A DNA stretch of 64,000 nt from a virus (IMGVR_UViG_3300032288_002343:1-64000), one strand, 5' to 3'. Positions 13,660 to 63,926 are shown, counted from the first letter of the stretch. The notes: a model not told the origin generated them from the sequence alone. A program made the numbers and translations.

Positions 13660-14784
13660 ATGGCACAGTACGATTTACTCATAGTGGGATCTGGCTTATA
13701 TGGTAGTGTATTTGCATATATTATGAGACAGTCAGGTTATCGTTGTCTTGTGATAGATCGTCGTGCTCATACTGGAGGTAACATCTATTGTGAGCGTAAA
13801 GAGGATATTGATGTCCATACCTATGGAGCACATATCTTTCACACTAATGATCAGGATACCTGGGAGTTTGTAAATAGCTTTGTTCCCTTCAATAGATTCA
13901 CCAATTCACCAATGGCTGTATATAAGGGAAAGATGTATAATCTTCCTTTTAATATGAATACCTTCTATCAATTATGGGGAATTAGTAATCCTCAAGAAGT
14001 AAAGCAAAAGATAGCTGAGCAGGTAAAGGAGGCAGGCATAACAAAACCTACTAACTTAGAAGAACAAGCTATTAGTCTGGTAGGTACAGATATTTATGAA
14101 GTGTTGATAAAAGGCTACACTGAGAAACAGTGGGGAAGGTCATGTAGAGAACTACCAACATTCATTATTAAACGATTACCAGTTAGGTTCACCTTTGATA
14201 ATAACTATTTCAATGACAAATATCAAGGTATACCTGAAGGAGGATACAATCGCTTAACTGAAGGATTGCTGGGCGACACACCTATACAGCTTAAGATGGA
14301 CTATCTTGCTAATAGAGAGTATTTCAACTCATTAGCACATTATATACTTTATACAGGTCCTATTGATGCATTCTACAATTATAAGTATGGTACACTAGAT
14401 TATCGCAGCCTTGGATTTCAAGAGCAGTATTTACCAATAGATAACTATCAAGGTGTGGCTGTTGTCAATTATACAGAGGTAGAAGTTCCCTTCACTCGTA
14501 TTGTAGAGCATAAACATTTTACATTTGGTAATCAAGCAGGCACTATCATCACAAAAGAATATCCTATGCAATGGGAAAAGAACCTTGAGCCTTATTATCC
14601 TATCAACGATGAGGTAAATAATAAGCTATTTGCCAGATATCAAGCTCTTGCAGCACATGAATCTAATGTACTATTTGGTGGAAGGTTAGCTGATTACAAG
14701 TATTATGATATGCATCAAGTTATTGCCTCTGCTCGTGTGCGTGCAAATCAATTTATTCAAACTAAATTAAAACAGTCTATATGA
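13660..14784 (+). CDS. glf: UDP-galactopyranose mutase
   Basis: 374 aa. Near full-length similarity to bacterial Glf as recalled from memory. FAD dinucleotide-binding motif VGSGLYG. Other matching segments: HTGGN, YGAHIFHTND, FNRFTNSP, NLPFNMNTF, LEEQAISLVG, IKGYTEKQWGR, RLPVRFTFDNNYF, YQGIP, TRIVEHKHF, EPYYPIND, GRLADYKYYDMHQVI. Confidence 0.9.
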   Translation: MAQYDLLIVGSGLYGSVFAYIMRQSGYRCLVIDRRAHTGGNIYCERKEDIDVHTYGAHIFHTNDQDTWEFVNSFVPFNRFTNSPMAVYKGKMYNLPFNMNTFYQLWGISNPQEVKQKIAEQVKEAGITKPTNLEEQAISLVGTDIYEVLIKGYTEKQWGRSCRELPTFIIKRLPVRFTFDNNYFNDKYQGIPEGGYNRLTEGLLGDTPIQLKMDYLANREYFNSLAHYILYTGPIDAFYNYKYGTLDYRSLGFQEQYLPIDNYQGVAVVNYTEVEVPFTRIVEHKHFTFGNQAGTIITKEYPMQWEKNLEPYYPINDEVNNKLFARYQALAAHESNVLFGGRLADYKYYDMHQVIASARVRANQFIQTKLKQSI

Positions 14785-43713: not shown

Positions 43714-44012
43714 AAAACCAGTTTTTCTACACTCGTAAGGAGTTAAAATCAGGGACTCCAGAAAACCCTGTGTACAATGTATTTCGTGACAGCTTTAACA
43801 TCAACAAGGTGATTCGCTCTGTTGCTATTGAGGATGGACGTATAATGATTTTATTAGATGATATCCATGAGCGTGCTCAGGAGGTTCCTGAAATTGATCC
43901 TCGTACTAATAAGATGAAGGGTATGAAGCGTCAGAAGAATACATTCCAGTCTGAAATTTATTTAGAAGGAGAAGACGTAGAACGTTTTTATGCTGCCACT
44001 AATATCATGTAA
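43710..44012 (+). CDS. hypothetical protein
   Basis: 100 aa ORF. Confidence 0.4.
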   Translation: MKNQFFYTRKELKSGTPENPVYNVFRDSFNINKVIRSVAIEDGRIMILLDDIHERAQEVPEIDPRTNKMKGMKRQKNTFQSEIYLEGEDVERFYAATNIM

Positions 44013-44742
44013 AATGATCACTTATGGTAGGGTGAGTACGCTTGAGGAAAGTTTAGAATCTTTCCTCAGGCAGGACTACCCTGCTGATAAATGTGAGCTA
44101 GTGATAGTGAATGACTATCCCTTACAAACTCTTAAGTTTGATCACCCACAGGTGAAGATTGTAAATGTCAATCAAACATTCACAACTATTGGAGCTAAGG
44201 AAAACTTTGCAACAGAAATGTGTGATGGAGAGATTATATGCCAGTGGGATGATGATGATTTAGCTATGCCTTGGCATTTACAGAATGTAGCTAAATATTT
44301 CACAGATGATGTGAACATTCTCCATTGGAATCCTGGTGTGTTTTATAACGGAGATAATATAACAGACATCACCTGGATAGGTAATTCAGGAATAGTATTT
44401 CGTAAATCTGTTTGGAAAGAAATAGGAGGACATCCTATTGAGAACGCTGGATATGACATGACATTCATAGAAACTCTGCATAAGTATGGAGGAAGACTAT
44501 TTGCTGAACCTCCTAAAGCTGAAGCTAGCTGGTTTTATATGTGGGGAGGACGTAGCTATCACATGTCTGGTCAGGGACATGATAAACCTGGCAAACCTAA
44601 TGCCATCCAAAGGCACAGTGCATATATAGAAAACCTTAGACAGCAGGGTAAGATTCCTACAGGTGAGGTGCAACTCAATCCTCATTGGAAAAAGGATTAT
44701 GTTAAGATGTTAGAAGACCACATAAAAAAAGCCCCTAGATAG
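43990..44742 (+). CDS. family 2 glycosyltransferase
   Basis: N-terminal GT-A start ITYGRVSTLEESLESFLRQDYP, VIVNDYP, DxD region QWDDDDL. Confidence 0.6.
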   Translation: MLPLISCKMITYGRVSTLEESLESFLRQDYPADKCELVIVNDYPLQTLKFDHPQVKIVNVNQTFTTIGAKENFATEMCDGEIICQWDDDDLAMPWHLQNVAKYFTDDVNILHWNPGVFYNGDNITDITWIGNSGIVFRKSVWKEIGGHPIENAGYDMTFIETLHKYGGRLFAEPPKAEASWFYMWGGRSYHMSGQGHDKPGKPNAIQRHSAYIENLRQQGKIPTGEVQLNPHWKKDYVKMLEDHIKKAPR

Positions 44743-45380: not shown

Positions 45381-45401
45381 TTTTATTTGAGTTTTTAATT
45401 G

Positions 45402-47695: not shown

Positions 47696-48108
47696 TAGGA
47701 CAGTGTTAGCAGGTACTTAGTTTTTGCAGCTTCTCCAGATAGAGCGTCAGCTAGATTAGCAATGTCATGAAACCCGTTGCTCTCACCAAAACTCTTAAGG
47801 CTTGAGGCGAAACTCATAAGCTCACTCACCACAATACTAGCACTTGCTGTATCTGATAGAGGTTCTACCTTTGGTGCTTTGGGACGCTTGCCCATATAGC
47901 CCATAAGTTTCTCAATCACCCCATCCTTAAAATCATGTACATAATCATATAGTCCACCAAGAGCTTGGTGTTCTGCATAACTCTGTGTTTGCCAATGCAA
48001 TAAATGTAATTGCTCATGGAAGTAGGTGAGCTTTCCAGCAATGCCTTCAAGCGTCATTTCACCAGCCCCACTCTTCAGCATGTCTGAAGGAAATAATGAC
48101 TTTGCCAT
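47695..48108 (-). CDS. hypothetical protein (138 aa; true start MAKSLFPSD)
   Basis: The track's 163-aa version starts inside the poly-Thr repeat of the upstream gene in another frame (MLYSYYNYHYNN...). The ATG at 48108 follows the upstream stop by 2 nt. Confidence 0.45.
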   Translation of the reverse strand: MAKSLFPSDMLKSGAGEMTLEGIAGKLTYFHEQLHLLHWQTQSYAEHQALGGLYDYVHDFKDGVIEKLMGYMGKRPKAPKVEPLSDTASASIVVSELMSFASSLKSFGESNGFHDIANLADALSGEAAKTKYLLTLS

Positions 48109-48110
48109 AA

Positions 48111-48314
48111 TTATTGAATAGTAGTTGTAGTAGTTGTTGTAGGTGCTACTGTTGTTGTAGTGGTAGTTGTAGTAGGAGTACAACATTGATTTGCATCAAT
48201 CTCTTGCCAATTACCAACCTTAGGTTTAAATCGCTGAAGGATTAAACTTCCTGCAATTACACGTCCTGTACCATCGTAACGAACGTATGCCTTTAGCTTA
48301 TTATTAGTTGCCAT
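48111..48314 (-). CDS. small poly-Thr-tailed protein, paralog A (67 aa)
   Basis: MATNNKLKAYVRYDGTGRVIAGSLILQRFKPKVGNWQEIDANQCCTPTTTTTTTTVAPTTTTTTTIQ. Confidence 0.5.
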   Translation of the reverse strand: MATNNKLKAYVRYDGTGRVIAGSLILQRFKPKVGNWQEIDANQCCTPTTTTTTTTVAPTTTTTTTIQ

Positions 48315-48325
48315 ACTTTTAAAAT

Positions 48326-48503
48326 TTAGGGTTGAGTGGTTGTGGTTGTAGTTGTAAGATTACAGCATTCATAAGCTGGAATTTCCACCCACTTACCTAC
48401 CTTGGGTTTTTTCCTTCTTAGAATCAGGCTGCTGGGAACGATTCTCCCAGAACCGTCAAAGCGTACATAAGCTTTGAGAGGGCGACTGTCAATTGTGGCC
48501 ATG
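48326..48503 (-). CDS. small poly-Thr-tailed protein, paralog B (58 aa; below the ORF-track cutoff)
   Basis: Hand translation from the complement ATG at 48503: MATIDSRPLKAYVRFDGSGRIVPSSLILRRKKPKVGKWVEIPAYECCNLTTTTTTTQP. Clear paralog of the 67-aa protein. Confidence 0.45.
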
Positions 48504-48504: not shown

Positions 48505-49521
48505 TTAATAGTTTAAATTATACTTGTTAAAAAGTTCTTTTAATTCGTTTGCATAATACCATGTACATCTAGTTTTTGATTTCTCATCACTGAGAACAGA
48601 GTTAAGATGTTCATCTTTTGAAGGATCTAGTCCTTGATGATATTTACCTTTATAAAAACAGTTGTGTCCATCCATAAAAGGAGACACAATTCCTGCATTA
48701 TGAAGGATTGGATGTGTTTCTAGTTTAGTAATGGGGTCTGGTGCCCAGCTAAATCCCATTTCAGGAATCACCTTCACCTCTTTTTCTTTTACCCACAGGT
48801 TCCACAGAACAGCCCACATATCAGCACACCAACTTTGGAATCCTTTGTTTTCGTTATCAAAGAATTCTTTGTTCACCTTCTGTAAGTAGCTTCTAATAAC
48901 AATACAGTCATTTATCACCTTGTTCCAAAAACTAGCATCTATGTTCTTAAGGAGGTATTGAGCTCCACCACTATCATCATTCTTAGCTACAGCTTCCTCC
49001 CTACTGATACCAATCACACTTCCTATTTCAGCAAGTATATCGCGTGTCTTGTATTCCTCTAGTTTCTCAGGTTTGACATCTCTCACCTTACTATCAAAAT
49101 ATGCAGCACTTATATAGCTGGTTGTTTCAGAAAGATAACATACATCATCATCCACAAACTGTTGAATATCAAAATGTTGTGTGAACAACACATCTGAATC
49201 ACAGTAGAATATAGCCTTATCGCTTAGTTCTGGATGTTTTTGCCAGTGTCTCCAAAGAGTGTAAGGTCTAAGCACAGGGATGTAGATTCCTAAAAGAGAA
49301 CTTATTTGATGTTCATCTTTATAAAAGTGAAACTCAGCCTCAGGATAGAGATCTATAACTTGTTTCCACTTAGGATTTTCCTCTCTGTAATTAGGAGTGA
49401 AAATAAGAACAATAGCCTTGTCAGATTCGTTTCTCTTTCTAAGGCTCTCCAACCATAAATGTACCTGCCATGTGTAGTAGGTATCATCTGGTTGAACACA
49501 GACATACTTTAAATCCTTCAT
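48505..49521 (-). CDS. putative nucleotide-sugar glycosyltransferase (DxD)
   Basis: 338 aa. Contains FYCDSDVLF (DxD-like). Flanked on both sides by poly-Thr-tailed small genes. Family unclear. Confidence 0.4.
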   Translation of the reverse strand: MKDLKYVCVQPDDTYYTWQVHLWLESLRKRNESDKAIVLIFTPNYREENPKWKQVIDLYPEAEFHFYKDEHQISSLLGIYIPVLRPYTLWRHWQKHPELSDKAIFYCDSDVLFTQHFDIQQFVDDDVCYLSETTSYISAAYFDSKVRDVKPEKLEEYKTRDILAEIGSVIGISREEAVAKNDDSGGAQYLLKNIDASFWNKVINDCIVIRSYLQKVNKEFFDNENKGFQSWCADMWAVLWNLWVKEKEVKVIPEMGFSWAPDPITKLETHPILHNAGIVSPFMDGHNCFYKGKYHQGLDPSKDEHLNSVLSDEKSKTRCTWYYANELKELFNKYNLNY

Positions 49522-49550: not shown

Positions 49551-49694
49551 TTATGGAGTGGTAGTGGTTGTAGTGGTAGTGCTAGCATTAGCTATAGTAC
49601 CCACTATCCCAATCAGTTGCTGAAGCTGCTTAGAAATATTCCAAAGGAGCTGCGACTGAGGGTCCTGACTTAAGGGTCTTGATGGTATTGCCAT
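49551..49694 (-). CDS. small poly-Thr-tailed protein (47 aa) sharing its N-terminus with the collagen-like fiber
   Basis: Hand translation: MAIPSRPLSQDPQSQLLWNISKQLQQLIGIVGTIANASTTTTTTTTP. The upstream fiber starts MAIPSRQIGWGPQENLLWEIAKQMEQL. Confidence 0.4.
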   Translation of the reverse strand: MAIPSRPLSQDPQSQLLWNISKQLQQLIGIVGTIANASTTTTTTTTP

Positions 49695-49696: not shown

Positions 49697-50536
49697 TTAT
49701 GCGATTCTATTTACTGTAAAAATTACTCCTGGAGATTGTGGTATAGTGCTTCCAACAGGAGGTATACTTGTTATAACTGTTTTTCCTTGGTTATTAGTCC
49801 ATTCCATTGCCACTATATCACCAGCAGAAAGTACTAGAAAAACGTTCACTGTCATGAGAGTAGCACCAGGTGTGCCTCCATGAATAGTGGGAGTTGTAAT
49901 GTAACTAGCTGTCTTAGGGACATCAACTCCATTTAATGTAAACCAAACTATAGCATCCTCAACATCATTGCTGAAGTTTTCAAACTGTATGCTAAACTGT
50001 AAATTGTATGTTCCAGCATTAACAATAGTGACATCTCCTGTAAGAGGGTTAAGTGTCACCCCATTTGAAAGATCTGTTTGATCTAGTTTTACTTGTGCAG
50101 GCACACCAGCAGGTGTGTATTGTGCTTGAGAAACACCAGCTCCAATAGCATGGTTAGCTCCACCAGAACTGGCTACACCTCTTGTAATTCCTGTAAAGGT
50201 GTTTCCAGAGATACCTGTGTAACCTATAATCTCTGCACCAATTCTCATATATCCAGGAGAATAAAATCCTGCTGTACTTGCCACCTGAATTGGAGCAGTG
50301 GTATTAGAATTCATTGAAGCTGTAAGAACAGTGGCACTATTAAATATAAAAGCTCCGTGATAGGCATTTGTCAATGATCCAGAAGCACCCTGAGGACCCT
50401 GAGGACCCTGAGGACCTTGAGGACCAACACCACCTATATTACAAAGCTGGCAGCCTAATTGCTCCATTTGCTTTGCAATTTCCCACAAGAGGTTTTCCTG
50501 AGGGCCCCAGCCTATCTGTCTTGACGGAATAGCCAT
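49697..50536 (-). CDS. collagen-like (GPQ)n fiber protein with C-terminal globular domain
   Basis: GGVGPQGPQGPQGPQGASGS encoded by a (CCTGAGGAC)n-like repeat at about 50390-50425. Ser/Thr/Gly/Asn-rich beta-rich C-terminal 200 aa. Confidence 0.6.
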   Translation of the reverse strand: MAIPSRQIGWGPQENLLWEIAKQMEQLGCQLCNIGGVGPQGPQGPQGPQGASGSLTNAYHGAFIFNSATVLTASMNSNTTAPIQVASTAGFYSPGYMRIGAEIIGYTGISGNTFTGITRGVASSGGANHAIGAGVSQAQYTPAGVPAQVKLDQTDLSNGVTLNPLTGDVTIVNAGTYNLQFSIQFENFSNDVEDAIVWFTLNGVDVPKTASYITTPTIHGGTPGATLMTVNVFLVLSAGDIVAMEWTNNQGKTVITSIPPVGSTIPQSPGVIFTVNRIA

Positions 50537-53709: not shown

Positions 53710-53857
53710 GACAGTATTACATGGGATTAGGTGTTAAAATAAAACACGCCAATTCCCTCCGAAAAGGAACCAGCGTGTTATGTAATTCAGCCCAGAACGG
53801 GCATAATATAGCAATAAGTTGACAGAGTAGGTGTCTGGTGCGAATCTAGGAAATTAT

Positions 53858-53888
53858 TTTGAAACTACCAAATATTTTTTTACCTTTG
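53858..53888 (+). promoter_or_regulatory. Bacteroidota-type promoter (TTTG-N19-TACCTTTG) with near-leaderless start of the mega-enzyme gene
   Basis: atTTTGaaactaccaaatatttttt-TACCTTTG-ctac-ATG. The -7 box ends 4 nt before the ATG at 53893. Confidence 0.5.
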
Positions 53889-53892: not shown

Positions 53893-56800
53893 ATGCCAAA
53901 TAGCTATACATTCTTCAAGCCAGAAATAAGACAGTGGTTCATTGACAATGTTCCCACCAGTAAGAGAATCTTAGATGTAGGCCCAGGACAGGGGACCTAT
54001 TCCAACCTACTTAGAGACCTTGGATATAGGATGGATGCAGTGGAAGTGTGGGCTCCCTACATAGAGCAATTTGATTTGCGATCTAAGTATGATAATGTCT
54101 ATAACGCCAACATCTTAGACTTTGATTTAACAGATTACGACTTTATTATACTAGGTGATGTTCTAGAGCATATTAGCACAGAGAACGCTCAGAACCTAAT
54201 TGACACTATAGTAAACTCTCTAAAAGATTGCCTAGTGGCAATTCCCTACATGATGGAGCAGGACGGGGAAGAGTATGGAAATGTTTATGAGACCCACCTT
54301 CAAGCAGACCTCACTCCTGATGTAATGAGGCAGCGCTATAAGATTTTAGAACCCATCTATAAGAATCAGTATTATGGTTATTACATCAATAAGCGTATTA
54401 GAATAAAGCGTGGGTTTGTAATGTACGCTACAGAAAGCTATTTAGATACTGTACAGGCAGCTGTAGATTCAATTCGTAAATACAGCTCTCTTAACATTTT
54501 TGTATATATGGTAAACTCCACTGCAAGAGTGAGAGGTGCTGTAACTATTGAATGGCCTGTTGCTATAAAACCTACAGAAAAGAAATCGTTTATTGACCGT
54601 GGAGATAGTAATGTCTATAAACTATTAATCCAGCGTCCTCAGATTGTAAGAGATGCACTACGTTATATGGAAACTGTGGCTTATGTAGATAGCGATAGTG
54701 TTGCCACTCCTTATATCGAACGTATTTTTGACATGTTCCCTGAGAAATCCTCCATCCCTTATTTTGTAGAGGGTATTTATGAATGGATGCTTGCTAATGG
54801 TAGAGGGGGAGCTGATTCTTATGATGATCTATCTACCACTCTTGAGCATCCAGCCTGTGAGCTGTTTGGTGTTAACCAGAAGGTTAGAAAGTTATATAGA
54901 CAAACTGGATATTTTGTAGCAGGCCAGTGGTGTGACAAGTTTCTAGCAGAGTGGAGATGGATGTGTATGCATCCTGAGGTATTTAAAAACCCTCAATACT
55001 ATGCACCCTATCATGAAGAAACTATTGTTAATACCCTCCTATGGAAGCATAACTTCCATGAGGGTTTGCCATACATCTATATAAACGGTGGGCTCGATAG
55101 AGTGAATAAAGCATACGGTGGTGAGGCCAAGTATATTCCTGGAATTCGTAACAATTTAGGACACTTCTTTAGACTACCTGATTCAAGACAAGACATCCTC
55201 TTCTTTCATGGAGAGAAAGATCCTGTTAGAATGAAAGAAATATCTGATAGAATAGACTTCTATAATAAGTACAAGATTGACCCCACAAAAAACTGGGGAG
55301 ATATTATTTCTCATAGGATCATCTCTCATTTTACAACAAAGAAGATTGATCCTATGGATATTTTCCATTTTGATACAAGTGCTATTGTTCCAAAAAAGAA
55401 AGGAAAACTTCTTGCTGTAGGAAGTGCTATGGTGTTTGCTAGACAGAATGACTATGTGTGGGGAACAGGTGTAATATCAGACAGAGAGGTGAATATAGAG
55501 GAACATCCTAGAAAGATATATGCTGTAAGAGGACCTATTACTAGAAAAGAATTACTTCGTGCAGGATTAGAATGTCCTGAGGTGTATGGTGATCCTGCTC
55601 TTTTATTTCCACGTATATACCAACCTAATGTCGATAAGAAGTACAAGTATGGAATAATTCCACACTATTCTGAATATCAGAACGCTGATGTTCTTAATGC
55701 TTTGTACAAGCTAGAAGATATGGAAGTGAAAGTGATTAATATCACTACAGGAATAGAACAATTTGTAGATGAGGTGAATGAGTGTGAATACATCATCTCT
55801 TCTAGCTTACATGGTATAATTGTAGCAGATGCATACAGAATACCTAATGTTCGTGTGCGCATGTCTAATGATATTGTAGGGGGAGATTTCAAGTATATGG
55901 ACTACTTTGCATCTGTAAAACGTGAATACCAACACAAACCTATTTGGATTACAGAGAACACTACACTAGAAGATATTGAAAAGTTTCCATATGAATTAGG
56001 AGACATCAGTTGTGCTGATGACCTATTAGCTAATGCTCCTTGGAAAGATCCTGAGTGTGCACTGTTTACTCCTACTAAAATTTTGTTTGTAGCACCGCAT
56101 CTATCTACAGGTGGAATGCCTGCCTTCCTATTGAAAAGAATAGATGCACTTCTTGCACACTCTGATTTTGAGGTGCATGTTGCTGAGTTTAGTTGCTATA
56201 GTAATGAGTTTGTAGTGCAGCGTAATAAAATTAAAGCAACACTAGGTAAAAGATTCCATGAGGTGGGAGCTGACAAGATGAATCTACTAAACATAATCCA
56301 TGATAACAACATAGATGTAGTGCATGTTGATGAGATTATGGAAGGGTTTGACAGCTTTAATCGTGTACCCACACCTGTATTAAGAGCTCTATATGACTCT
56401 AGAAGAACATGGCGTATTGTTGAGACATGTCACAATGTATGGTTCAATCCTGATAAAGACAAAATATTCCATCCTGATGGATATGCATTCTGTACTCCTT
56501 ATCATGAAATCACATTTGGTAACATGCCTTCTGAGAAGAAGGTGATTCAGTTTCCAATTGAGAATAGAGTGCCAATCTATCAGATGAAACGTAGAGCTAA
56601 AGAACAATTAGGATTTGATCTTAACAAAAAACATGTGCTCAATGTAGGACTATGGACTCCTGGTAAAAACCAAATAGAGGGTTTAGAGATAGCTAGACAA
56701 CTCCCTGACATTCAGTTTCATTTTGTAGGCAATCAAGCTCCTAACTTTGAAGACTACTGGGGACCAGCGATGAAAGATCTTCCTCCTAATGTAAAGATTT

Positions 56801-58254
56801 GGGGAGAGCGCTCTGATACAGAAACATTCATGCATGCTGCAGATATGTTCATGTTCAACTCAACGTGGGAATGTAATCCTCTTGTAGTGAGAGAGGCTAT
56901 ATCTTATGGTCTACCTGTACTCACTCGTGATCTACCACAATATGTAGGAATGTTTGATGATTATATTGTGAAATTAGATGATAGTAGAAAGGTTTGGCAA
57001 GTTAGAGAAATACTGAACTCAGTTGAACCAATAAAAATCCCAAATGATACGAACGAACGTTTCTCTAAAGATCATGAAGTTTTCTATCGTCACTTATTAA
57101 ACTTACCACACATTAAACAGAATAAGGTGTCAGATGTAAAGGTGAATACACATTTCATAGGACGCCCTACAGTAGAGGTTTTAGGAGAAAGTGATAAGAC
57201 TTATACAGTTAAGTTTATTGATGATGGAGGATTTATAATACATCAATCAAAGATTAAAGCTAATGAATGGACAGCTGCCAATCGTGCCTATTATACTGAT
57301 TGGAAAATTGAGGTGTATGAAGAAGATGAGTTGATATATGAACATCAGTTTGATGTAAAAGGTAAGCGTGTATATATTGCTTTCGATAGTGCTTCCTTAG
57401 GAGACAATATTGCATGGATTCCATATGTATTAGAGTTTAAGAGAAAACATAACTGTCATGTGATAGTGTCTACCTTCAAGAACTTCTTATTCAAGGATGT
57501 ATATCCTGAGCTAGAGTTTATCAATCCAGGAGAACAAGCACCGAACATATATGCTATGTATAAATTGGGCTGGTTCTATAATTCAAACTTAGAGCCTGTT
57601 GAACCCCATAAAATTCCTCTTCAAAAGGCTGCCACTAACATTCTAGGACTAGAATTCAACGAACTCAATCCTAGAATAAAGCATAATCTTGCTAAGAATG
57701 TATATGGTAAGTATGTAACAATTGCTACTAATTCAACAGCTCAGTGTAAGTTCTGGACTAAAGAAGGCTGGCAGGGACTGATTAACTATCTAGTTGAAAG
57801 AGGATATAAGGTGGTGAATGTATCTATGGAGAATAATCCATTTGACAACTGTGAGCAGTTGAGAGACAAGTCCATGGAAAACACTATGAACACTATTCAC
57901 CACAGTGAATTCTTCATAGGTTTATCTAGTGGATTGAGTTGGTTAGCGTGGGGACTTGGTAAACAGGTTGTTATGATTGCTAACTTCTCAGATGCCTATC
58001 ATGAATTTACGAGCAGATGTACAAGGATTGTAAAAGAAAATGTGTGCCATGGTTGTTGGAACACTCACAAGTTTGATAAGTCAGACTGGTACTGGTGTCC
58101 TTTGCAGAAAGGAACTAACAGAGAATTTGAATGTCACACATCCATCAATGCTAATGATGTAATTGAGAAGGTAGAATTTATTATTGAAAACATGGGCAAA
58201 CACAATCTAGATACTCATTCTAGATGTGATTCATGTGATAAAAACATACTATGA
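53893..58254 (+). CDS. 1453-aa multidomain glycan-synthesis enzyme: SAM methyltransferase + GT-A (DxD) + pyruvyl-transferase-like + GT4 + GT9 heptosyltransferase-like
   Basis: MTase motif I ILDVGPGQG and IILGDVLEH. GT-A DxD AYVDSDS. SSLHGIIVADAYRIPNV (PS-pyruvyl-transferase-like). GT4 N-terminal KILFVAPHLSTGG and C-terminal ECNPLVVREAISYGLPVLT. GT9-like KRVYIAFDSASLGDNIAWIPYVLEFKRKH and KYVTIATNSTAQCKFW. Confidence 0.75.
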   Translation: MPNSYTFFKPEIRQWFIDNVPTSKRILDVGPGQGTYSNLLRDLGYRMDAVEVWAPYIEQFDLRSKYDNVYNANILDFDLTDYDFIILGDVLEHISTENAQNLIDTIVNSLKDCLVAIPYMMEQDGEEYGNVYETHLQADLTPDVMRQRYKILEPIYKNQYYGYYINKRIRIKRGFVMYATESYLDTVQAAVDSIRKYSSLNIFVYMVNSTARVRGAVTIEWPVAIKPTEKKSFIDRGDSNVYKLLIQRPQIVRDALRYMETVAYVDSDSVATPYIERIFDMFPEKSSIPYFVEGIYEWMLANGRGGADSYDDLSTTLEHPACELFGVNQKVRKLYRQTGYFVAGQWCDKFLAEWRWMCMHPEVFKNPQYYAPYHEETIVNTLLWKHNFHEGLPYIYINGGLDRVNKAYGGEAKYIPGIRNNLGHFFRLPDSRQDILFFHGEKDPVRMKEISDRIDFYNKYKIDPTKNWGDIISHRIISHFTTKKIDPMDIFHFDTSAIVPKKKGKLLAVGSAMVFARQNDYVWGTGVISDREVNIEEHPRKIYAVRGPITRKELLRAGLECPEVYGDPALLFPRIYQPNVDKKYKYGIIPHYSEYQNADVLNALYKLEDMEVKVINITTGIEQFVDEVNECEYIISSSLHGIIVADAYRIPNVRVRMSNDIVGGDFKYMDYFASVKREYQHKPIWITENTTLEDIEKFPYELGDISCADDLLANAPWKDPECALFTPTKILFVAPHLSTGGMPAFLLKRIDALLAHSDFEVHVAEFSCYSNEFVVQRNKIKATLGKRFHEVGADKMNLLNIIHDNNIDVVHVDEIMEGFDSFNRVPTPVLRALYDSRRTWRIVETCHNVWFNPDKDKIFHPDGYAFCTPYHEITFGNMPSEKKVIQFPIENRVPIYQMKRRAKEQLGFDLNKKHVLNVGLWTPGKNQIEGLEIARQLPDIQFHFVGNQAPNFEDYWGPAMKDLPPNVKIWGERSDTETFMHAADMFMFNSTWECNPLVVREAISYGLPVLTRDLPQYVGMFDDYIVKLDDSRKVWQVREILNSVEPIKIPNDTNERFSKDHEVFYRHLLNLPHIKQNKVSDVKVNTHFIGRPTVEVLGESDKTYTVKFIDDGGFIIHQSKIKANEWTAANRAYYTDWKIEVYEEDELIYEHQFDVKGKRVYIAFDSASLGDNIAWIPYVLEFKRKHNCHVIVSTFKNFLFKDVYPELEFINPGEQAPNIYAMYKLGWFYNSNLEPVEPHKIPLQKAATNILGLEFNELNPRIKHNLAKNVYGKYVTIATNSTAQCKFWTKEGWQGLINYLVERGYKVVNVSMENNPFDNCEQLRDKSMENTMNTIHHSEFFIGLSSGLSWLAWGLGKQVVMIANFSDAYHEFTSRCTRIVKENVCHGCWNTHKFDKSDWYWCPLQKGTNREFECHTSINANDVIEKVEFIIENMGKHNLDTHSRCDSCDKNIL

Positions 58255-58928
58255 ACCTAGACAACTTTATATGGGAACCAAATCTGTACCCAACATTTAA
58301 AGAAACAATTATCAATGAGATCTTTGAACAGAAGATCTACGAACGTATATTTCCTGTAGAGGAGGGAGATGTAGTGCTGGATATTGGGGCTAGTCTTGGA
58401 CCATTCACATTCTCTATTCTACACAAGAAACCAAAACATGTGTTTGCCCTAGAGCCAAGTTACTCAGAGTTTAAAACGTTGGTTCTCAATACATTACACG
58501 GAAATGTTACACCTATCAACAAAGGGATAGGTGCTAAGGTGGGAGAGTTTAAGTTTGACAACATCTTTCTAAACGATGGTATAAAGATGTACTCAACTAC
58601 ATTCACACAGTTGATTGATGATTATAACATCCAGACAATTGACTTCCTTAAGACAGATTGTGAGGGTGGGGAGTATGACATATTCACTCCTGCTAATCTC
58701 ATATGGATTAAGCAGAACGTAAAGAAGATTGCAGGAGAATGGCACTTAACCACTCCTGAACTAAGAGAAAAGTTTAGAGCATTCAGAGACACCTACTTAA
58801 GAATATTCCATAGACATCAAGTGTATTCAGTGGATGCTGTTAATATCACTTGGGATCTATGGAATGATAAATTTTTGAACTACTATAGTGAAGTGATTCT
58901 TTATATAGACAATCAGGATTATTTGTAG
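58251..58928 (+). CDS. FkbM-family SAM-dependent methyltransferase
   Basis: VLDIGASLGPFTF motif. 225 aa. Start overlaps the mega-enzyme stop. Confidence 0.6.
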   Translation: MNLDNFIWEPNLYPTFKETIINEIFEQKIYERIFPVEEGDVVLDIGASLGPFTFSILHKKPKHVFALEPSYSEFKTLVLNTLHGNVTPINKGIGAKVGEFKFDNIFLNDGIKMYSTTFTQLIDDYNIQTIDFLKTDCEGGEYDIFTPANLIWIKQNVKKIAGEWHLTTPELREKFRAFRDTYLRIFHRHQVYSVDAVNITWDLWNDKFLNYYSEVILYIDNQDYL

Positions 58929-59506
58929 TGATCTCCTCCTACCCAGAGAACAAAAGAACGACGTATACCAGTTGTCACACGTGTAACACGGTGCATCATA
59001 TATGACGGGAAAATAAACACTACGCCTTTTTCTTTAGGAGCTGTCATATAACCATCTCCACCCTGCCAGTATTGTAAATCACCACCTTCATATTCATCAG
59101 GGCCAGACAGTTGTACAGTGATGGATACCTTTCTTTGAGAGAGCCATCCTGGTCCAATATCTTGGTGCCAGCCATAATGACCATTATCTACAGCATGATA
59201 TTCAGTGTACTGAATGCTATCCATTACAGAGTGAAGATCAAACTTCCATAAAGCATTATTAGCTTCTGTTGCCATGTTTATCATCTTCTCATAAAGCCAT
59301 TCCCATTCAGAATTTTTTGGAACCCATTTTATAATAGAAGAACGAATGTCCTTCATTGAATCACTAGCCACTGTGGCTTGTTCAAAAGGAAGAGCAGCAA
59401 CACCAGCATATACACGTTCTAACTCTTCAGGAGAAAACCCCTGTAGATAGTAATAGTAGTTGGTTGGGTCAGTTGTCTCTTTAGGAAATACGTATGTATT
59501 TGTCAT
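58919..59506 (-). CDS. 2OG-Fe(II) oxygenase, prolyl 4-hydroxylase-like (P4Hc)
   Basis: HxD in HYGWHQDIG, second His in MMHRVTRV, RxS in RRSFVLW. GGDLQYW. Confidence 0.7.
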   Translation of the reverse strand: MTNTYVFPKETTDPTNYYYYLQGFSPEELERVYAGVAALPFEQATVASDSMKDIRSSIIKWVPKNSEWEWLYEKMINMATEANNALWKFDLHSVMDSIQYTEYHAVDNGHYGWHQDIGPGWLSQRKVSITVQLSGPDEYEGGDLQYWQGGDGYMTAPKEKGVVFIFPSYMMHRVTRVTTGIRRSFVLWVGGDHYK

Positions 59507-60723
59507 ATGTTTGGTTTATAAATATAATTTGCAACACCCTCTTCAGTTCCAAATTTATTAGGAATCTCATCAAGATCTTTATCTTTTTGTTCGTACACCC
59601 AGTCAGTAATTTTTAACTGCTTGAATCTATTAGCTATGCTTTCATTATAGAACTCAGCAATAGATGCCACTCTACGTTGAATATCAGCACGAGCTACATC
59701 ATGTGAATTGCGCTCTTGTTCATTCTGGTAGATGATTTGTATATATCCTAGACGACAAATCTTACAGAACTTTGTGTACAAGAAACTTCTCACTACTAGT
59801 TCATAATCATCAGCAATAGTCATATCTCTATTATGTCCTCCTATAGACAAGTAGAAACTTTTACGCCATGCTCTAATGTGATTAGGAATTCCTACAATAT
59901 GACGTATAGTTTTTGGATTAATGTTATGTTGATCACAAACATCCCAAATATTTCCTTTGTAATCCTCTCTTCTATACTTTCCATATCCAAAAGCAAACCC
60001 TGGTCCGTATGTAAGAGACTGAAACTGTTCATTCACCTCCACCCAATCAGTGAAGAAGAACCCAACATCTGGATATTTAAGTGCAGCATTATATAAATCT
60101 AATGCACATGTGTCTGTAAGAATATCATCATGATCAAGCTCTGCTAGAATAAATCCTTTGCACAGCATCGCTGCTCTGTATTTAGCTTCACCAATATTAC
60201 CTCCACTCTTCTCTTCAAAATTGTATACACGCACTCGATGGTCATCTTTAGCAATCTTTTTTGCAATCTCAAGAGTTTCTTCATCGTCACTATCATGTAC
60301 AAGCACCCATTCCCAATCTTTATGAATTTGACTTACTAAGGATGCATAAGTTCTTAATAGTTTTTTTCCTGTCTTATACATGGATGTAAAGAAGGAAATT
60401 GTTCTAGCGTTGTTCTGTGTAAGAATCTGATTCATGGCACAGAAATAAGCACGCTGTCCTAGATCTTCTGTTACTGTTTCTGTATTAAACCATCTCTTTC
60501 TTACCTCATGTGTTTCATTAAACAGCTTTGGAAACTCTCTATCTGATTTACCAATTGTAACAATTGCATCTGGTTTGAATTCAACAAGTGTTTTAGTCAA
60601 TTCTTTTTCATCAGGAACATGTTTCACACAAAGTGTTCTTTCTTCAAAATCAAACCTCTGTATAGTTTTTAACTCTGGAGTGCCTGGTCCAACGTATAAT
60701 ATTTTAGGCAACGTGGTTTTCAT
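59503..60723 (-). CDS. family 2 glycosyltransferase
   Basis: WVLVHDSDDEETLEIAKKIAKDDHRVRV and ELDHDDIL (DxD). Confidence 0.6.
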   Translation of the reverse strand: MKTTLPKILYVGPGTPELKTIQRFDFEERTLCVKHVPDEKELTKTLVEFKPDAIVTIGKSDREFPKLFNETHEVRKRWFNTETVTEDLGQRAYFCAMNQILTQNNARTISFFTSMYKTGKKLLRTYASLVSQIHKDWEWVLVHDSDDEETLEIAKKIAKDDHRVRVYNFEEKSGGNIGEAKYRAAMLCKGFILAELDHDDILTDTCALDLYNAALKYPDVGFFFTDWVEVNEQFQSLTYGPGFAFGYGKYRREDYKGNIWDVCDQHNINPKTIRHIVGIPNHIRAWRKSFYLSIGGHNRDMTIADDYELVVRSFLYTKFCKICRLGYIQIIYQNEQERNSHDVARADIQRRVASIAEFYNESIANRFKQLKITDWVYEQKDKDLDEIPNKFGTEEGVANYIYKPNI

Positions 60724-61846
60724 GATACTTGGTTTTGAAATGATTCAGGTTATCAAGCAACCTTGGTTTGTGGTGCTCAAAATCTGGATCATCTATAATT
60801 GCATTAATCAATTTAACACCTTGCTCAGGTTTGTTAGTCCAAAAGCAAGATACAGAAAGTTCATCATAATTCCATTTACCATATGCTGATTCATCTACAA
60901 AAAGAATATACTTATTCTTCATAGCAGTCAAGTCTTTCTTGACAGCCTCATTTAGGTAGTGATATCCCTTTTCAAAGTCTCTTAACGTGTTAAAATGTAT
61001 TCCCATGTAATGATAGGGCTCAGCTCTGTCTGGGAATATTTCTATAGCTTTTCTCATCTCACGTTCAATAAGTTCAATATCAGCATTCATGCTTATGTAG
61101 ATTTTTCCTATCCTAAGCTGTGCCTCAAATCTTTCTTCTATCCACGTGTTTTGTAGTTTTAGGTAGAGATTGTTCCACTGTAGCGCTTCTGTGTACATGC
61201 CATAATCCATGTAGCTTTGTGCTGTATAGAAGGCAGATCTGTTGTTTAGATCATCTGGGTCCTCTATAAGCGTGTCAAAGAATTGCTTCTGAAGGCGCTG
61301 TGCATCATAGAAAAACTTCTTAGGATCGAATGCACGTGACCCAATACCCTCACAAATGATATAAGAGGAATCACTGATGTCGCCCATTGAAAAGTTTGGC
61401 TTCTCAAGGCACTTGATTGTAGTGTGAGCCACACCACAGAACTTCCATGTATAAGAAGCTTTGAATAAAATAAGTGCTTTATAGTTAGAACCCCCACGTC
61501 TAACATTCATATAGTAGGAGTCTTTGTCAGGGTCATTTTCGGGAAAGAAAAATTCGCCAGCCAAAAGATCGTCAGCATCCAAATGCATGATATAATCTGC
61601 CTTATCTTTAGCACAAGCAATCATCTTAGTCTTGCTCTTGTCAAATCCCTCAAAGGTTTCAGCATAGAACTTTCCTGGAATGTTCTTCTCTTTAAAGAAG
61701 GTTTCCACTATTTCTTGTGTTCTATCTGTAGAACCAGTGTCATATACGACCCAGTGGTCAATATATTTATAGACAGACTCAAGCGTATCTTTGATACAAT
61801 GTTCTTCGTTCTTGCACATTGTAGCAAAGCAAATTGTTGGTTTCAT
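60704..61846 (-). CDS. family 2 glycosyltransferase with TPR-like C-terminal domain
   Basis: ICFATMCKNEEHCIKDTLESV...VYDTGSTDRT...MHLDADDLL. TPR-like YHYMGIHFNTLRDFEKGYHYLNEA. Confidence 0.6.
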   Translation of the reverse strand: MKPTICFATMCKNEEHCIKDTLESVYKYIDHWVVYDTGSTDRTQEIVETFFKEKNIPGKFYAETFEGFDKSKTKMIACAKDKADYIMHLDADDLLAGEFFFPENDPDKDSYYMNVRRGGSNYKALILFKASYTWKFCGVAHTTIKCLEKPNFSMGDISDSSYIICEGIGSRAFDPKKFFYDAQRLQKQFFDTLIEDPDDLNNRSAFYTAQSYMDYGMYTEALQWNNLYLKLQNTWIEERFEAQLRIGKIYISMNADIELIEREMRKAIEIFPDRAEPYHYMGIHFNTLRDFEKGYHYLNEAVKKDLTAMKNKYILFVDESAYGKWNYDELSVSCFWTNKPEQGVKLINAIIDDPDFEHHKPRLLDNLNHFKTKYHENHVA

Positions 61847-62757
61847 TAAATATCAAAAAAGAATAGGTGAAAGAATCTAGAGTTTTCAATAGCATCTCCG
61901 AAGTAGCCAGTCGCAGCATGAATTGATTTAGCGTCAAACATTACTAAACGATTATAAACATTAGCTACACTATCTACCATCTCAAATGTGCTATTATCAT
62001 AGAAGTTAAGATCACTATTTTTCCCTTTAAATGTTGGTTCAAATAGAGGATGGTCGTTTGTATCAAAGCGTGTAGCTCCTGTAAGCTTGCTCTTAAAGCT
62101 AGCTGTTCCAGAACGCAAAGGTGCATCTGGTGTTAGATACACCATTGCCGCATAGTTCTGAGTATCAACATGATATACAATAGGATCTTGTGCTGTGCAG
62201 AACTGAAACACACCATTTGCATAGTTAGGGTGATTCCAATTATAGATTGGTCTACCAAGGATGCTTTCAAATGCTTCCTTCGTACCACTCAATATGAATT
62301 GATCTGTGCTTCTTTGCCCTCTGTGGTAACCAGAAAAATTAAAGGTGAGGTTCTTCATTGCATATTCTCTCACCTCATCAGGATTATTGTAAAAGTTGTC
62401 AACAACAATTAAGTTCTTGTTCTTGTTATTAAATCCTAGATGATAAATGTACCAAGGATAGATACTACCTATCTCACGAACAATACCTCTTTCAGTGACT
62501 ACATCTATAAGCTTGTTAAAATCTTCCTTTCTTAGCTTAAACTCTACTCCCACTTGAGTTGTAGGAAGAGTAGGGTATACCCCTAAAACGTCAAAACGGT
62601 CATGAACATTAACTTTAATGTCCTGACCGTCTATCTTTAACCCTGTGACTTTCAGAGTTTTATGCGTTATCCAACCTTTTATATTATATTCATCTCCATC
62701 AGGAGTGATAGAATCAATGTACCAAAGAACATTACTGTTCCTAGAATCATGTGCCAT
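61846..62757 (-). CDS. cupin / 2OG-Fe(II) oxygenase-like protein (tentative)
   Basis: NLIVVDNFYNNPDEVREYA, HxD-like YHVDTQ, a later His in SIHAATGYFG and NSRFF. Assignment is weak. Confidence 0.35.
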   Translation of the reverse strand: MAHDSRNSNVLWYIDSITPDGDEYNIKGWITHKTLKVTGLKIDGQDIKVNVHDRFDVLGVYPTLPTTQVGVEFKLRKEDFNKLIDVVTERGIVREIGSIYPWYIYHLGFNNKNKNLIVVDNFYNNPDEVREYAMKNLTFNFSGYHRGQRSTDQFILSGTKEAFESILGRPIYNWNHPNYANGVFQFCTAQDPIVYHVDTQNYAAMVYLTPDAPLRSGTASFKSKLTGATRFDTNDHPLFEPTFKGKNSDLNFYDNSTFEMVDSVANVYNRLVMFDAKSIHAATGYFGDAIENSRFFHLFFFDI

Positions 62758-62810
62758 AAAACGTAGATTTCAGCAAATCTACAAAAAAAGTTATTTGTTT
62801 ACAAATTTAT

Positions 62811-63353
62811 TTAAGGGAGTCTATCTACAAGAGGGAAATAAAGAAGACCTCCTGGATTTAGATTTGCTGCATATTTAGCTTCCAAAATAGGTTTTTGTTG
62901 ATTAAGATCTTCTATGTTATTTACCCAGATGTCAATTAATATGACATCATATTTTTCATTGGTAACATGAGTCATTATATCTCCTTGAATAATATTCACC
63001 TTTGGATGAAGATAGTTTGTATTATTCTTAACAAGGTCAATAACTTCTGAATCTAGCTCAACAACATCCACCTTGGTACAAAAAGGTTGTGTTAGAAAAG
63101 GCGCCACACCCATTCCAAGACCACCACATAGAATACTTGTAAAGCTTCTATTGTAGAGTTTATCTAAATAACTTTCTATAAATTGTACATGATCAAAAAA
63201 GACAGTACCATCAAATGCATGTTGCATGATTAAATACTTATTGTCTTTCTGTTTTACAATTCTCCAATCACCACTTCTTACAAAATTAGTGGTCATTTGA
63301 TTTTTGAAGTTATCTAAAACACCTACACCAGAGAGTCCAGTTTTTACTAACAT
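62811..63353 (-). CDS. spermidine-synthase-fold / class I SAM-binding Rossmann protein
   Basis: ILCGGLGMGV (compare SpeE GGGDGG), VDVVELDSEVIDLV, IQGDIMTHV...YDVILIDIW. Confidence 0.45.
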   Translation of the reverse strand: MLVKTGLSGVGVLDNFKNQMTTNFVRSGDWRIVKQKDNKYLIMQHAFDGTVFFDHVQFIESYLDKLYNRSFTSILCGGLGMGVAPFLTQPFCTKVDVVELDSEVIDLVKNNTNYLHPKVNIIQGDIMTHVTNEKYDVILIDIWVNNIEDLNQQKPILEAKYAANLNPGGLLYFPLVDRLP

Positions 63354-63365
63354 ATATTTTTACTT

Positions 63366-63926
63366 TTAAATACAGGTGAGAAATGTTCCTGTTTTTACAA
63401 ACACTGCTATAGTCATATAACGTTTACCAGTTCCAGTAGGAGTGGTAGTATAGTACTGTCCTTGCCCTGAATCAACTGTTCCACAATAAGCAGTAGATGT
63501 AGCTGGACAATCAGTAGCATCAGCTACATCAAATTGTCTTCCACTATTTTTTCCACTACTTGGGACAGCAGCAAATCCAAGTTGTAAGTCAGTTGTTGGG
63601 GGAATAGATACAGTTCCCATTGTATTACATGTTGTACTTATACTACTTCCATATACTAATAGGGTATCAGCTCCAAAACTTATATTGTAATAAATTGCAT
63701 AGTTACCTGTAGTTTCACCAAAAGCACTAGATATATATTTAGCATCTATTGCAATAGAATATCCACATGAATAGCTATAAAAATCACTCATAGCATCAGG
63801 ACTAGAAAATCCTGCACAAGCACTTAATCTACGTAATGAGTAGTCACCTCCTTCACAACAACCATTACCAACTATCTCAGTATATATATCACTAATTGAT
63901 ATTACACCACTGCTAGGAAGAGGCAT
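63366..63926 (-). CDS. Ser/Thr/Gly/Cys-rich protein (possible fiber or adhesin tip)
   Basis: 186 aa, low-complexity S/T/G/Y with 10 Cys. No motif match. Confidence 0.4.
   Translation of the reverse strand: MPLPSSGVISISDIYTEIVGNGCCEGGDYSLRRLSACAGFSSPDAMSDFYSYSCGYSIAIDAKYISSAFGETTGNYAIYYNISFGADTLLVYGSSISTTCNTMGTVSIPPTTDLQLGFAAVPSSGKNSGRQFDVADATDCPATSTAYCGTVDSGQGQYYTTTPTGTGKRYMTIAVFVKTGTFLTCI

Follow-up and report, generated by a model that had tools for sequence, protein, structure and literature searches.

Introduction

Enzymes of the BAHT family, such as TibC and Aah, modify serine residues of proteins directly in the cytoplasm, with bacterial beta-helical surface adhesins as their known acceptors, and the functional residues of TibC have been defined, comprising the catalytic base, the ADP-heptose-binding residues, an iron finger and a thumb that builds the dodecameric TibC ring (PMC4358343). 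GmaR is the O-GlcNAc transferase of Listeria flagellin (PMC9638930). Among viruses, chlorovirus PBCV-1 bears N-linked glycans on its capsid protein and encodes A064R, which consists of two glycosyltransferase (GT) domains and a methyltransferase domain, and Mimivirus L230 is an oxygenase and glycosyltransferase that acts on viral collagen-like proteins, hydroxylating their Lys residues (PMC9614988). For tailed phages, glycans are reported to have been observed on the capsid and tail-tube subunits of mycobacteriophages (Freeman et al. 2023, summarised in PMC12619734). Here we analyse an island of glycan-related genes, at positions 53,893-63,926 of the 64,000 nucleotides (nt) of the viral sequence IMGVR_UViG_3300032288_002343 (hereafter the window; the same positions are used throughout), whose core is related to the BAHT enzymes.

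We propose, at a probability that we put at about 0.55, that this island specifies a phage-encoded cytoplasmic system for protein O-glycosylation, with the phage's own Ser/Thr-rich fibres and poly-Thr proteins as its likeliest targets, because two of its enzymes resemble protein glycosyltransferases, it lies beside fibre genes and it encodes soluble enzymes only. On this proposal the phage probably coats its own fibres, rather than the surface of the host, with sugar. An original prediction, made from the DNA alone, had drawn eight adjacent open reading frames (ORFs) on two strands, all of which were recovered at exactly those positions, and had taken them for a glycan or post-translational-modification cluster in a tailed phage, and hidden Markov model searches or structure prediction bear out almost all of the folds assigned to them. 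Its description of the toolkit as unusually large was not upheld, as GT-rich hypervariable regions beside tail-fibre genes have already been described in aquatic myophages (PMC7029224). What is new here is the BAHT-like core, the GT2-TPR enzyme, the adjoining Ser/Thr-collagen fibres and the division into core and cassette.

Results

A BAHT-like module terminates a five-module enzyme

The 1453-amino-acid (aa) protein that opens the island is also called in two independent assemblies and is therefore not an assembly chimera. Its fifth and last module (aa 1102-1428), originally predicted as GT9, is a glycosyltransferase that can be placed more precisely, as it scored 270.9 bits against a cutoff of 200 on TIGR04414, the NCBIfam equivalog of Aah/TibC autotransporter O-heptosyltransferases. 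The match spans profile positions 27-372 of 374, including part of the region ahead of the catalytic domain, and the sequence of the TibC structure 4rap matched the module at 1.4e-47, whereas models of lipopolysaccharide (LPS) heptosyltransferases reached only 15-23 bits (cutoffs 170-185).

Conservation of the functional residues, numbered as in TibC, was scored over an alignment of 121 phage-type homologues. The catalytic base Asp110, aligned within SLGDNIAW, was found to be invariant (121/121), as were the sugar-binding residues Thr226, Lys230 and Trp305 across the 121 sequences and all four cysteines of the iron finger (Cys339/342/358/370, 121/121), for which iron binding is predicted. Pro300 is replaced by Ser in the window protein, as at the equivalent position of Aah. 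Judged by its sequence, module 5 is a distinct, thumb-less branch of the BAHT family and is expected to act directly on Ser/Thr of proteins. The branch is large (1517 proteins at E<=1e-10), with many members auto-named 'autotransporter strand-loop-strand O-heptosyltransferase' by JGI, and its members are either stand-alone proteins of about 370 aa or fused to GT1 domains. No autotransporter acceptor of the AIDA-I/TibA type was found in the window or in the extension past its end, the neighbours being collagen-like fibres, and a literature search returned nothing relevant that joins phages with TibC/BAHT-type enzymes.

A second protein glycosyltransferase-like enzyme and a soluble enzyme set

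The island also encodes an enzyme, GT2-TPR, in which a PF00535 domain at aa 10-98 is followed by TPR matches at aa 204-307. Its best match of solved structure was GmaR (3.9e-9 over aa 1-113), followed by the GT2-like protein 7msk (1.6e-4), and it scored weakly on TIGR04195 (32.5 bits, cutoff 350), the equivalog of the peptide S-glycosyltransferases of the SunS family, which would make it an architectural relative of SunS and not an equivalog. By sequence comparison, the BAHT-like module and GT2-TPR both look like protein glycosyltransferases. No transmembrane (TM)-like segment was detected in any island enzyme; a GtrB-like PHROG match was weak (2.6e-5) and confined to the GT2 core.

Ser/Thr-rich collagen-like fibre genes abut the island

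Sequence past the window end was recovered from contigs encoding exactly identical proteins, and there, on the same strand and directly upstream of the gene for a 186-aa protein, lie genes for products of 1182, 1902, 131 and 1559 aa, the stop of the 1182-aa fibre gene lying 2 nt before the start of the 186-aa gene. In the 1182-aa product, Pfam Collagen matched 12 stretches (2e-110), an S74 intramolecular chaperone forms the C-terminus, and tail-fibre PHROGs were matched strongly. Its GXY runs take up 909 aa, 297 of them Ser/Thr, and hold Pro at X 36 times, Pro at Y 4 times and no Lys. The 1902-aa product matched Pfam Collagen at 2e-74 (its C-terminal 533 aa were scanned) and ends with an unbroken G-(T/S)-(S/T/G) stretch of 513 residues. 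On the minus strand the genes run in the order fibres, 186-aa protein, methyltransferase fold, DUF6445, GT2-TPR, GT2 and PKHD-type oxygenase, the last of these closing the fibre gene run, which converges on the plus-strand genes for the 1453-aa protein and for an FkbM methyltransferase, two genes that overlap by 4 nt (stop of the former, start of the latter). A literature search found nothing linking collagen-like phage fibres with O-glycosylation.

The suggestion that virion proteins are decorated is in this way given a BAHT-family domain, a GmaR/SunS-like GT2-TPR enzyme and Ser/Thr-rich collagen-like fibre genes abutting the island, from which the decoration itself is inferred.

A conserved core and a swappable cassette

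Seven IMG/VR contigs were found to encode homologues of the 1453-aa protein, at about 52% identity. A comparison with related phages had been proposed as a way to see whether the island is a variable accessory region, and this held for one part of it and not for another. The window genes of 58251-63926 have no counterpart in the seven relative contigs, and aa 455-728 of the 1453-aa protein are absent from all six relatives (of the seven) that reach that region, where aa 454 is joined directly to aa 729, so that the pyruvyl-transferase module is an insertion specific to the window. In contrast, the GT4 and BAHT-like core is conserved, with the GT4 module kept beside the BAHT-like module either as a fusion or as an adjacent gene. 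One relative without any cassette has a GT1 gene and a stand-alone BAHT-like gene that converge straight on the fibre genes, and in other relatives the big protein is split into a methyltransferase/GT-A/GT4 protein (761 aa) and a BAHT-like protein (371 aa).

In relatives that extend past the big gene, it is followed by a nucleotidyltransferase (CTP_transf)-like gene, an APS-kinase-like gene, a sulfotransferase gene and sometimes a GT25 gene, and then by giant fibre genes. This sulfation cassette (13353-14976 in contig L004, 11530-13774 in contig L010) implies, by its predicted enzymes, sulfated rather than methylated or pyruvylated products in those phages. What the lineage keeps as its core, beside the fibre genes, are the GT4 and BAHT-like modules, and the tailoring genes are a swappable cassette between core and fibres. 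The G+C content of the cassette in the window (0.361) and of the pyruvyl-transferase insert (0.362) is slightly below that of the window overall (0.380).

Upstream synteny is also conserved in the relatives, comprising basic proteins, DUF5856, poly-Thr proteins, the phrog_4417 protein, a collagen-like protein and lysis genes, and in L010 the left end of the gene block in which the window has its third GT2 is occupied by a GT2 gene of 249 aa. The fibres of L010 and of a further contig, L014, also hold long (G-S/T-S/T)n runs. The beta-roll fibre of other relatives was not found in the window.

Poly-Thr-tailed proteins as further candidate acceptors

As predicted, three poly-Thr-tailed proteins and one collagen-like protein are encoded upstream of the island (Table 1). 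Four runs of at least seven Thr were seen, against about 4e-4 expected in 64 kb by our own estimate (about 6% Thr, about 1.3e5 six-frame positions). The tails are coded by mixed Thr codons and are kept as composition, not as sequence, in three small-protein families across the relatives, so that selection for poly-Thr appears to act on the protein.

The 48-aa N-terminal module of family B (LKAYVRYDGxGR...KPKVGxW...CC) was found in 885 cluster representatives at E<=1e-3 and had no Pfam match (one window member scanned). Often the module is repeated in tandem, poly-Thr forms linkers and the C-terminal domains vary between members, some having stretches like leucine-rich repeats, a predicted layout that fits an anchor, a stalk and a display domain. 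The 47-aa family A protein and the 279-aa collagen-like protein have their first ~30 residues in common (MAIPSR...LLW.I.KQ..QL; 49697-49790 in the collagen-like gene), and this N-terminal module is present twice in relatives too; it may be a common docking peptide.

For the gene between the poly-Thr genes, which had been predicted to encode a DxD glycosyltransferase, this assignment could not be confirmed: its product matched phrog_4417 only and had no Pfam match and no PDB match, either as a single sequence or as a profile. In profile-profile comparison with domain X of the 1453-aa protein, only a 15-residue DxD strand was aligned (probability 2.9%). The gene is kept between poly-Thr genes in all relatives.

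Other modules and genes of the island

In Pfam and NCBIfam searches of the ORFs, the methyltransferase, pyruvyl-transferase, GT4, FkbM, 2OG-FeII_Oxy_3, two GT2 and DUF6445 assignments all scored above their cutoffs, and the more distant glf and GT2 genes of the window were also confirmed (Table 1).

Table 1. Positions of the island genes, of the modules of the 1453-aa enzyme and of related genes elsewhere in the window
Feature	Position	Strand	Basis
Glf, UDP-galactopyranose mutase, supplier of UDP-galactofuranose	13660..14784	+	PF03275 9e-76
Third GT2 glycosyltransferase	43990..44742	+	PF00535 41.3 bits
Poly-Thr-tailed small protein, family B (48-aa N-terminal module, CC, T8...T7)	48111..48314	-	sequence
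Poly-Thr-tailed small protein, family B paralogue	48326..48502	-	sequence
phrog_4417 protein, conserved YCDSDV motif, putative glycosyltransferase	48505..49521	-	PHROG match, function unassigned
Poly-Thr-tailed 47-aa protein, family A	49551..49694	-	sequence
Collagen-like (GPQ)x4 protein, 279 aa, weak BclA_C-like / tail-fibre-like C-terminus	49697..50536	-	sequence
Five-module enzyme, 1453 aa (methyltransferase, GT-A, pyruvyl transferase, GT4, BAHT-like)	53893..58254	+	Pfam, NCBIfam, AlphaFold/Foldseek
Module 1, class-I S-adenosylmethionine methyltransferase (aa 21-112)	53953..54228	+	PF13489 31.4 bits, PF08241 27 bits
Module 2, domain X (aa 172-454), predicted GT-A fold, retaining GT6/GT8/GT24-like	54406..55254	+	AlphaFold + Foldseek
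Module 3, polysaccharide pyruvyl transferase (aa 455-728)	55255..56076	+	PF04230 57.7 bits (cutoff 25.3)
Module 4, GT4 / Glycos_transf_1, GT-B (aa 729-1041)	56077..57015	+	PF00534 41.6 bits (cutoff 26.4)
Module 5, BAHT-family (TibC/Aah-like) iron-finger protein O-glycosyltransferase, thumb-less subfamily (aa 1102-1428)	57196..58176	+	TIGR04414, TibC 4rap
FkbM-family methyltransferase	58251..58928	+	PF05050 39.8 bits, TIGR01444 52.2 bits
2OG-Fe(II) oxygenase, PKHD/P4H superfamily, 195 aa	58919..59506	-	PF13640 (2OG-FeII_Oxy_3) 45.3 bits; phrog_61 2e-27
GT2 glycosyltransferase (glycan-elongating type), 100-aa N-terminal extension	59503..60723	-	PF00535 58.2 bits
GT2 + TPR, GmaR/SunS-like candidate protein glycosyltransferase	60704..61846	-	PF00535 44.2 bits
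DUF6445, N-terminal beta-sandwich + predicted 2OG-Fe(II) oxygenase domain	61846..62757	-	PF20043; AlphaFold pLDDT 89
Small class-I methyltransferase-fold protein	62811..63353	-	spermine-synthase Pfam match, 22.9 bits (cutoff 22.9)
186-aa protein, directly downstream of the 1182-aa collagen-like fibre gene	63366..63926	-	no family match

Among homologues of the 1453-aa protein, the methyltransferase and domain X form a common unit of ~450 aa. The GT-A part of the prediction was borne out by modelling: domain X had no Pfam, PHROG or PDB sequence match, and its AlphaFold model (pLDDT 91.5, pTM 0.91) matched ABO GTA/GTB (GT6), alpha-1,3-GalT and UGGT in the Foldseek PDB search (E about 1e-7, TM-score about 0.5), indicating a retaining GT-A glycosyltransferase fold. 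Its YxDxD motif is invariant among 25 homologues, and it is 49% identical to a protein of Virus NIOZ-UU157. The PF04230 match of the pyruvyl-transferase module is partial (profile positions 124-276 of 280), and the module is about 40% identical to pyruvyl transferases of Lak megaphage and Cobetia phage.

Both oxygenases have the residues of 2-oxoglutarate (2OG)-Fe(II) enzymes. In the 195-aa protein these are H114-Q-D116 and H172, the 2OG-Fe(II) triad, and the 2OG-binding R183; its best PDB match was PiuC (3dkq, 9e-5), and the prolyl-4-hydroxylase (P4H) 6iuq reached only 0.068, so its predicted affinity is closest to PKHD/PiuC-type hydroxylases. The designation P4H-like is not supported in the sense of a collagen P4H, a reading that is further weakened, as far as sequence can tell, because Pro lies at the X position in both the 1182-aa fibre and the (GPQ)4 protein and there is no Lys for lysyl hydroxylation. 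The second, cupin-oxygenase-like protein of the prediction is DUF6445, in which H196-x-D198, H280 and R294 are invariant among homologues. Its model matched OGFOD1, PHD2, Tpa1 and HygX in Foldseek, with prolyl hydroxylases and many other 2OG oxygenases matched equally, and the modelled fold is that of a 2OG-Fe(II) oxygenase.

The GT2 of 59503-60723 matched chondroitin synthase, beta-1,3-GlcNAc transferase (6h1j) and GalT1 in the PDB. For the protein called a spermidine-synthase fold, the match lies exactly at the Pfam cutoff and class-I methyltransferase fold is the safer name. The 186-aa protein had no family match in Pfam or PHROG and is, as foreseen, rich in Ser (13%), Thr (12%) and Gly (11%).

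BAHT-like genes in unrelated lineages

Three genomes outside the lineage have ORFs of (G-S/T-S/T)n repeats at most about 5 kb from a BAHT-like gene: Microcystis phage Mel-JY01, L012/L013 (a contig whose weak sheath-protein match makes it a probable myovirus) and a phage of 735 kb. In a fourth, of 636 kb, no such protein was found near the BAHT-like gene. In L012/L013 the same GT4 and GT-A (domain X) modules occur in reverse order, together with an FkbM domain, in a protein of 1042 aa, and after its gene come a BAHT-like gene that stands alone and another FkbM gene, an arrangement that the sequences identify as domain shuffling. A PF04488 (Gly_transf_sug) match in the L012 homologue was considered as domain X and rejected, as a direct scan maps it elsewhere.

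At positions 1-3052 of Mel-JY01 (L008, PP395634.1), GenBank has two minus-strand 'hypothetical proteins' of PEVP/LVPE repeats, and one long frame on the plus strand encodes a collagen-like fibre, (G-T/S-S)n, whose C-terminus is globular; the deposited annotation there is probably on the wrong strand. A 'cytidylyltransferase-like' protein of Mel-JY01 was considered as an ADP-heptose synthase and gave no PDB match. A literature search found no publication on Mel-JY01.

The phage and its possible host

The window carries the genes of a tailed dsDNA phage (large terminase, portal, family-A DNA polymerase, primase and helicases), together with rIIA/rIIB, ribonucleotide reductase, RecA, dUTPase and a GH19 endolysin. 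No nucleotide match for the island or the replication block was found among 50,697 phage records, and the terminase shares 41% identity with its counterpart in Leptolyngbya phage Lbo-JY46, 32% with those of Cellulophaga phages phi17:2 and phi4:1 (145 kb) and about 27% with those of crAss-like phages. The genome is probably about 116 kb, because a contig of 115,908 bp bears a protein identical to one window protein. With rIIA/rIIB, its own replication genes and no integrase among the window ORFs profiled, the phage looks lytic from its gene content.

The Bacteroidota-type -7 promoter motif TAnnTTTG was found in the 60 nt ahead of 7 genes out of 72, where about 2.4 would be expected, including the 1453-aa gene (53881-53888) and the collagen-like gene, and together with the terminase relatives this sequence signal hints at a Bacteroidota host. 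A sigma-70 promoter scan of the window was uninformative (62 sites, 59 expected). The lysis-side genes and the 1453-aa gene diverge from an intergenic region that contains, at 53743-53779, an apparently perfect stem of 17 bp with 6 G-C pairs and a 3-nt loop; on the minus strand a T-run follows it, and the structure may be a terminator or a regulatory hairpin.

Downstream of the portal and terminase genes, a minus-strand open frame of 490 aa (1-1470) extends beyond the window start; it may be the major capsid protein, with its C-terminus cut off there. Five successive proteins of ~125-152 aa (44922-47114, minus strand) contain 25-29% Lys+Arg and a common N-terminal motif, M-x-x-(I/V)-K-K-x-Q, are partly kept in relatives and may be DNA-condensing or ejected internal virion proteins. 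The DUF5856 / phrog_858 protein (47695-48186, minus strand) adjoins poly-Thr genes in all relatives; its ORF opens with an odd Tyr/Asn-rich extension of 26 aa, and the true start is probably the second Met.

Discussion

A proposed route to glycosylated fibres

In the pathway that we propose, the acceptors would be the giant (Gly-Ser/Thr-Ser/Thr)n collagen-like fibres and the poly-Thr-tailed proteins of 48.1-49.7 kb. Priming would place a sugar straight from a nucleotide sugar onto Ser/Thr hydroxyls, through the BAHT-like module, the GT2-TPR enzyme or both, whose activity, donor and acceptor are extrapolated from their family membership. The GT4 and GT-A modules and the other GT2 enzymes, possibly with the phrog_4417 protein, would then elongate the glycan, with UDP-galactofuranose supplied by Glf, and for tailoring the three methyltransferase folds would O-methylate, the pyruvyl-transferase module would pyruvylate and the two 2OG-Fe(II) oxygenases might hydroxylate. 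The phage might gain a fibre that is extended and resists proteases, or a Pro-poor triple helix stabilised by glycans, and glycosylation might, additionally or instead, alter receptor binding or provide shielding.

Several points weigh against this proposal. Each functional step is deduced from sequence. The 9-residue beta-hairpin thumb segment of TibC (Phe265/Val266) is missing from the window protein and from every one of the 121 phage-type sequences, and Arg286, an ADP-heptose-binding residue, is Thr in the window protein and in 108 of the 121, changes through which donor sugar, quaternary structure and acceptor recognition may differ from those of TibC. The adjacency of core and fibres within this lineage is inherited synteny and not independent evidence, and the same core is kept in contigs L001-L004, whose beta-roll fibres contain no GXY run, so that collagen repeats are not the sole acceptor. 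The poly-Thr proteins are candidate virion components only. Pyruvyl transferases, FkbM methyltransferases, Glf and GT2 are classic enzymes of polysaccharide pathways, and undecaprenyl-linked intermediates at the inner membrane face are substrates of soluble glycosyltransferases as well, so that work on host glycans would be compatible with the lack of TM segments.

These last points lead to the reading that is customary for GT-rich regions beside tail-fibre genes in aquatic phages (PMC7029224), namely that host LPS, capsule or exopolysaccharide is made or altered by these enzymes during infection, for example with methylated, pyruvylated or galactofuranose residues, which would block superinfection by competing phages or the re-adsorption of progeny to lysing cells. 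The likeness of the GT2 of 59503-60723 to polysaccharide synthases is in keeping with it, as are the pyruvyl transferase, FkbM and Glf, all typical of polysaccharide pathways, and the co-variation of cassette and fibre type among relatives could reflect matching to host serotypes. However, the window encodes no polytopic membrane protein and therefore has no flippase, polymerase, ligase or GtrA/B/C, nor does it encode an initiating phosphoglycosyl transferase, and the conserved core belongs to a family of protein glycosyltransferases rather than to the lipid-acceptor heptosyltransferases. Known seroconversion systems are, moreover, prophage-borne, unlike this apparently lytic phage. We consider remodelling of the host surface unlikely.

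Host proteins would be the acceptors if the BAHT-like and GT2-TPR enzymes modified adhesins, autotransporter-like beta-helix proteins or flagellin/pilin-type receptors, so masking receptors or reprogramming the cell. Known BAHTs do act on beta-helical surface adhesins (PMC4358343) and GmaR on flagellin (PMC9638930), and the relatives with beta-roll fibres show the core to be independent of collagen repeats. Against this, the enzymes adjoin phage fibre genes, poly-Thr and Ser/Thr-collagen phage proteins recur beside them in several lineages, no host-targeting feature was identified and no host acceptor can be named, which leaves modification of host proteins improbable.

DNA hypermodification, in which methyltransferases, 2OG oxygenases and GTs would build glycosylated bases (T-even or TET/JBP-type) against restriction, recalls the classic role of phage glycosyltransferases in DNA glycosylation and a gene set superficially like that of phage TET-glycosyltransferase islands, but is scarcely credible here, as the oxygenases are PKHD/prolyl-hydroxylase-like and DUF6445 rather than TET/JBP, the methyltransferases are of FkbM and small-molecule types rather than DNA C5 or N6, no hydroxymethylase was found among the window ORFs profiled, and BAHT, GT2-TPR and pyruvyl transferase enzymes have no known DNA role.

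Wider significance

Clusters of GT genes beside tail fibres are commonly assumed to modify the host O-antigen, to which self-glycosylation of the virion is now a concrete alternative, since the core family glycosylates proteins directly and Ser/Thr-rich acceptors can be named. If the fibres are indeed glycosylated, virion glycosylation in tailed phages would reach beyond mycobacteriophages to aquatic phages and the BAHT family beyond the autotransporters of pathogens, and Pro-poor collagen-like phage fibres would gain a plausible mechanism of stabilisation. A variable layer of methyl, pyruvyl or sulfate groups could then affect host range, protease resistance, grazing or immune recognition, and compact multi-module glycosylation enzymes might be of use in glyco-engineering.

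A broader hypothesis can be put forward tentatively, although we regard it as doubtful in its full extent: that an unrecognised, thumb-less BAHT-like subfamily (>1500 metagenome homologues) hyperglycosylates Pro-poor (Gly-Ser/Thr-Ser/Thr)n fibres and poly-Thr linkers in several unrelated lineages of aquatic phages, with glycans replacing hydroxyproline in stabilising the triple helix and a swappable methyl/pyruvyl/hydroxyl or sulfate cassette diversifying the fibre surface, as a phage counterpart of mucin or BclA-type filaments.

Comparison with known systems

By sequence, BAHT (TibC, Aah; 4rap; PMC4358343) is the closest enzyme family. The window module passes the equivalog cutoff and has in common with these enzymes the catalytic Asp, three of four sugar-binding residues, the four-Cys iron finger and solubility, but unlike them it is phage-encoded, is fused to four other modules, has the thumb deleted and Arg286 changed to Thr, and has no autotransporter substrate; it is in the thumb and the autotransporter partner that the window variant departs from the family.

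The closest phage precedent is the glycosylation of C-terminal tails in mycobacteriophages. As described in PMC12619734, these are likewise tailed phages with their own GTs, C-terminal Ser/Thr-rich tails as candidate acceptors and a proposed shielding role, whereas the window system is known from genes alone, its candidate acceptors are fibres and small proteins, and its enzyme set is larger and different (BAHT-like, GT2-TPR, pyruvyl transferase, oxygenases).

The closest architectural precedents are PBCV-1 A064R/A061L and Mimivirus L230, as analogues and not homologues. The likeness to chloroviruses and mimiviruses drawn in the original prediction is fair as an architectural analogy to A064R, as PBCV-1 also has virus-encoded glycosylation that is independent of the host, a multi-domain GT and methyltransferase fusion and a separate second methyltransferase (PMC9614988), but there is no sequence homology to PBCV-1 or Mimivirus beyond the GT-A fold, and the host of the window phage is a bacterium. 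In contrast to the Lys-hydroxylating L230, the window fibres have no Lys in their GXY runs.

GT2-TPR resembles GmaR and SunS in having an N-terminal GT2 catalytic domain followed by TPR repeats, although the similarity to GmaR covers only about 110 aa of the GT2 domain and generic TPR, and the window protein has no anti-repressor domain. For the fibres, the repeats of Bacillus exosporium BclA, which are O-glycosylated with methylated sugars, offer a parallel in their Pro-poor, Thr-rich GXY composition (GPT, GTS), surface-filament location and globular C-terminal domain; the parallel ends at the BclA_C match of the 279-aa protein, which is far below cutoff (16.6 vs 38 bits), at the S74-chaperone tail-fibre context and at the GTs, which are unrelated. 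The components of GtrABC seroconversion, namely the GtrA flippase, the TM-bearing GtrB and GtrC, are all without counterpart in the window. With the hypervariable regions of pelagimyophages and cyanomyophages (PMC7029224), the locus shares a variable GT cassette adjoining tail-fibre genes in aquatic phages, but those regions, mostly of GT8, are read as modifiers of host O-chains, whereas the core of the window belongs to a protein-glycosyltransferase family with nameable Ser/Thr-rich acceptors.

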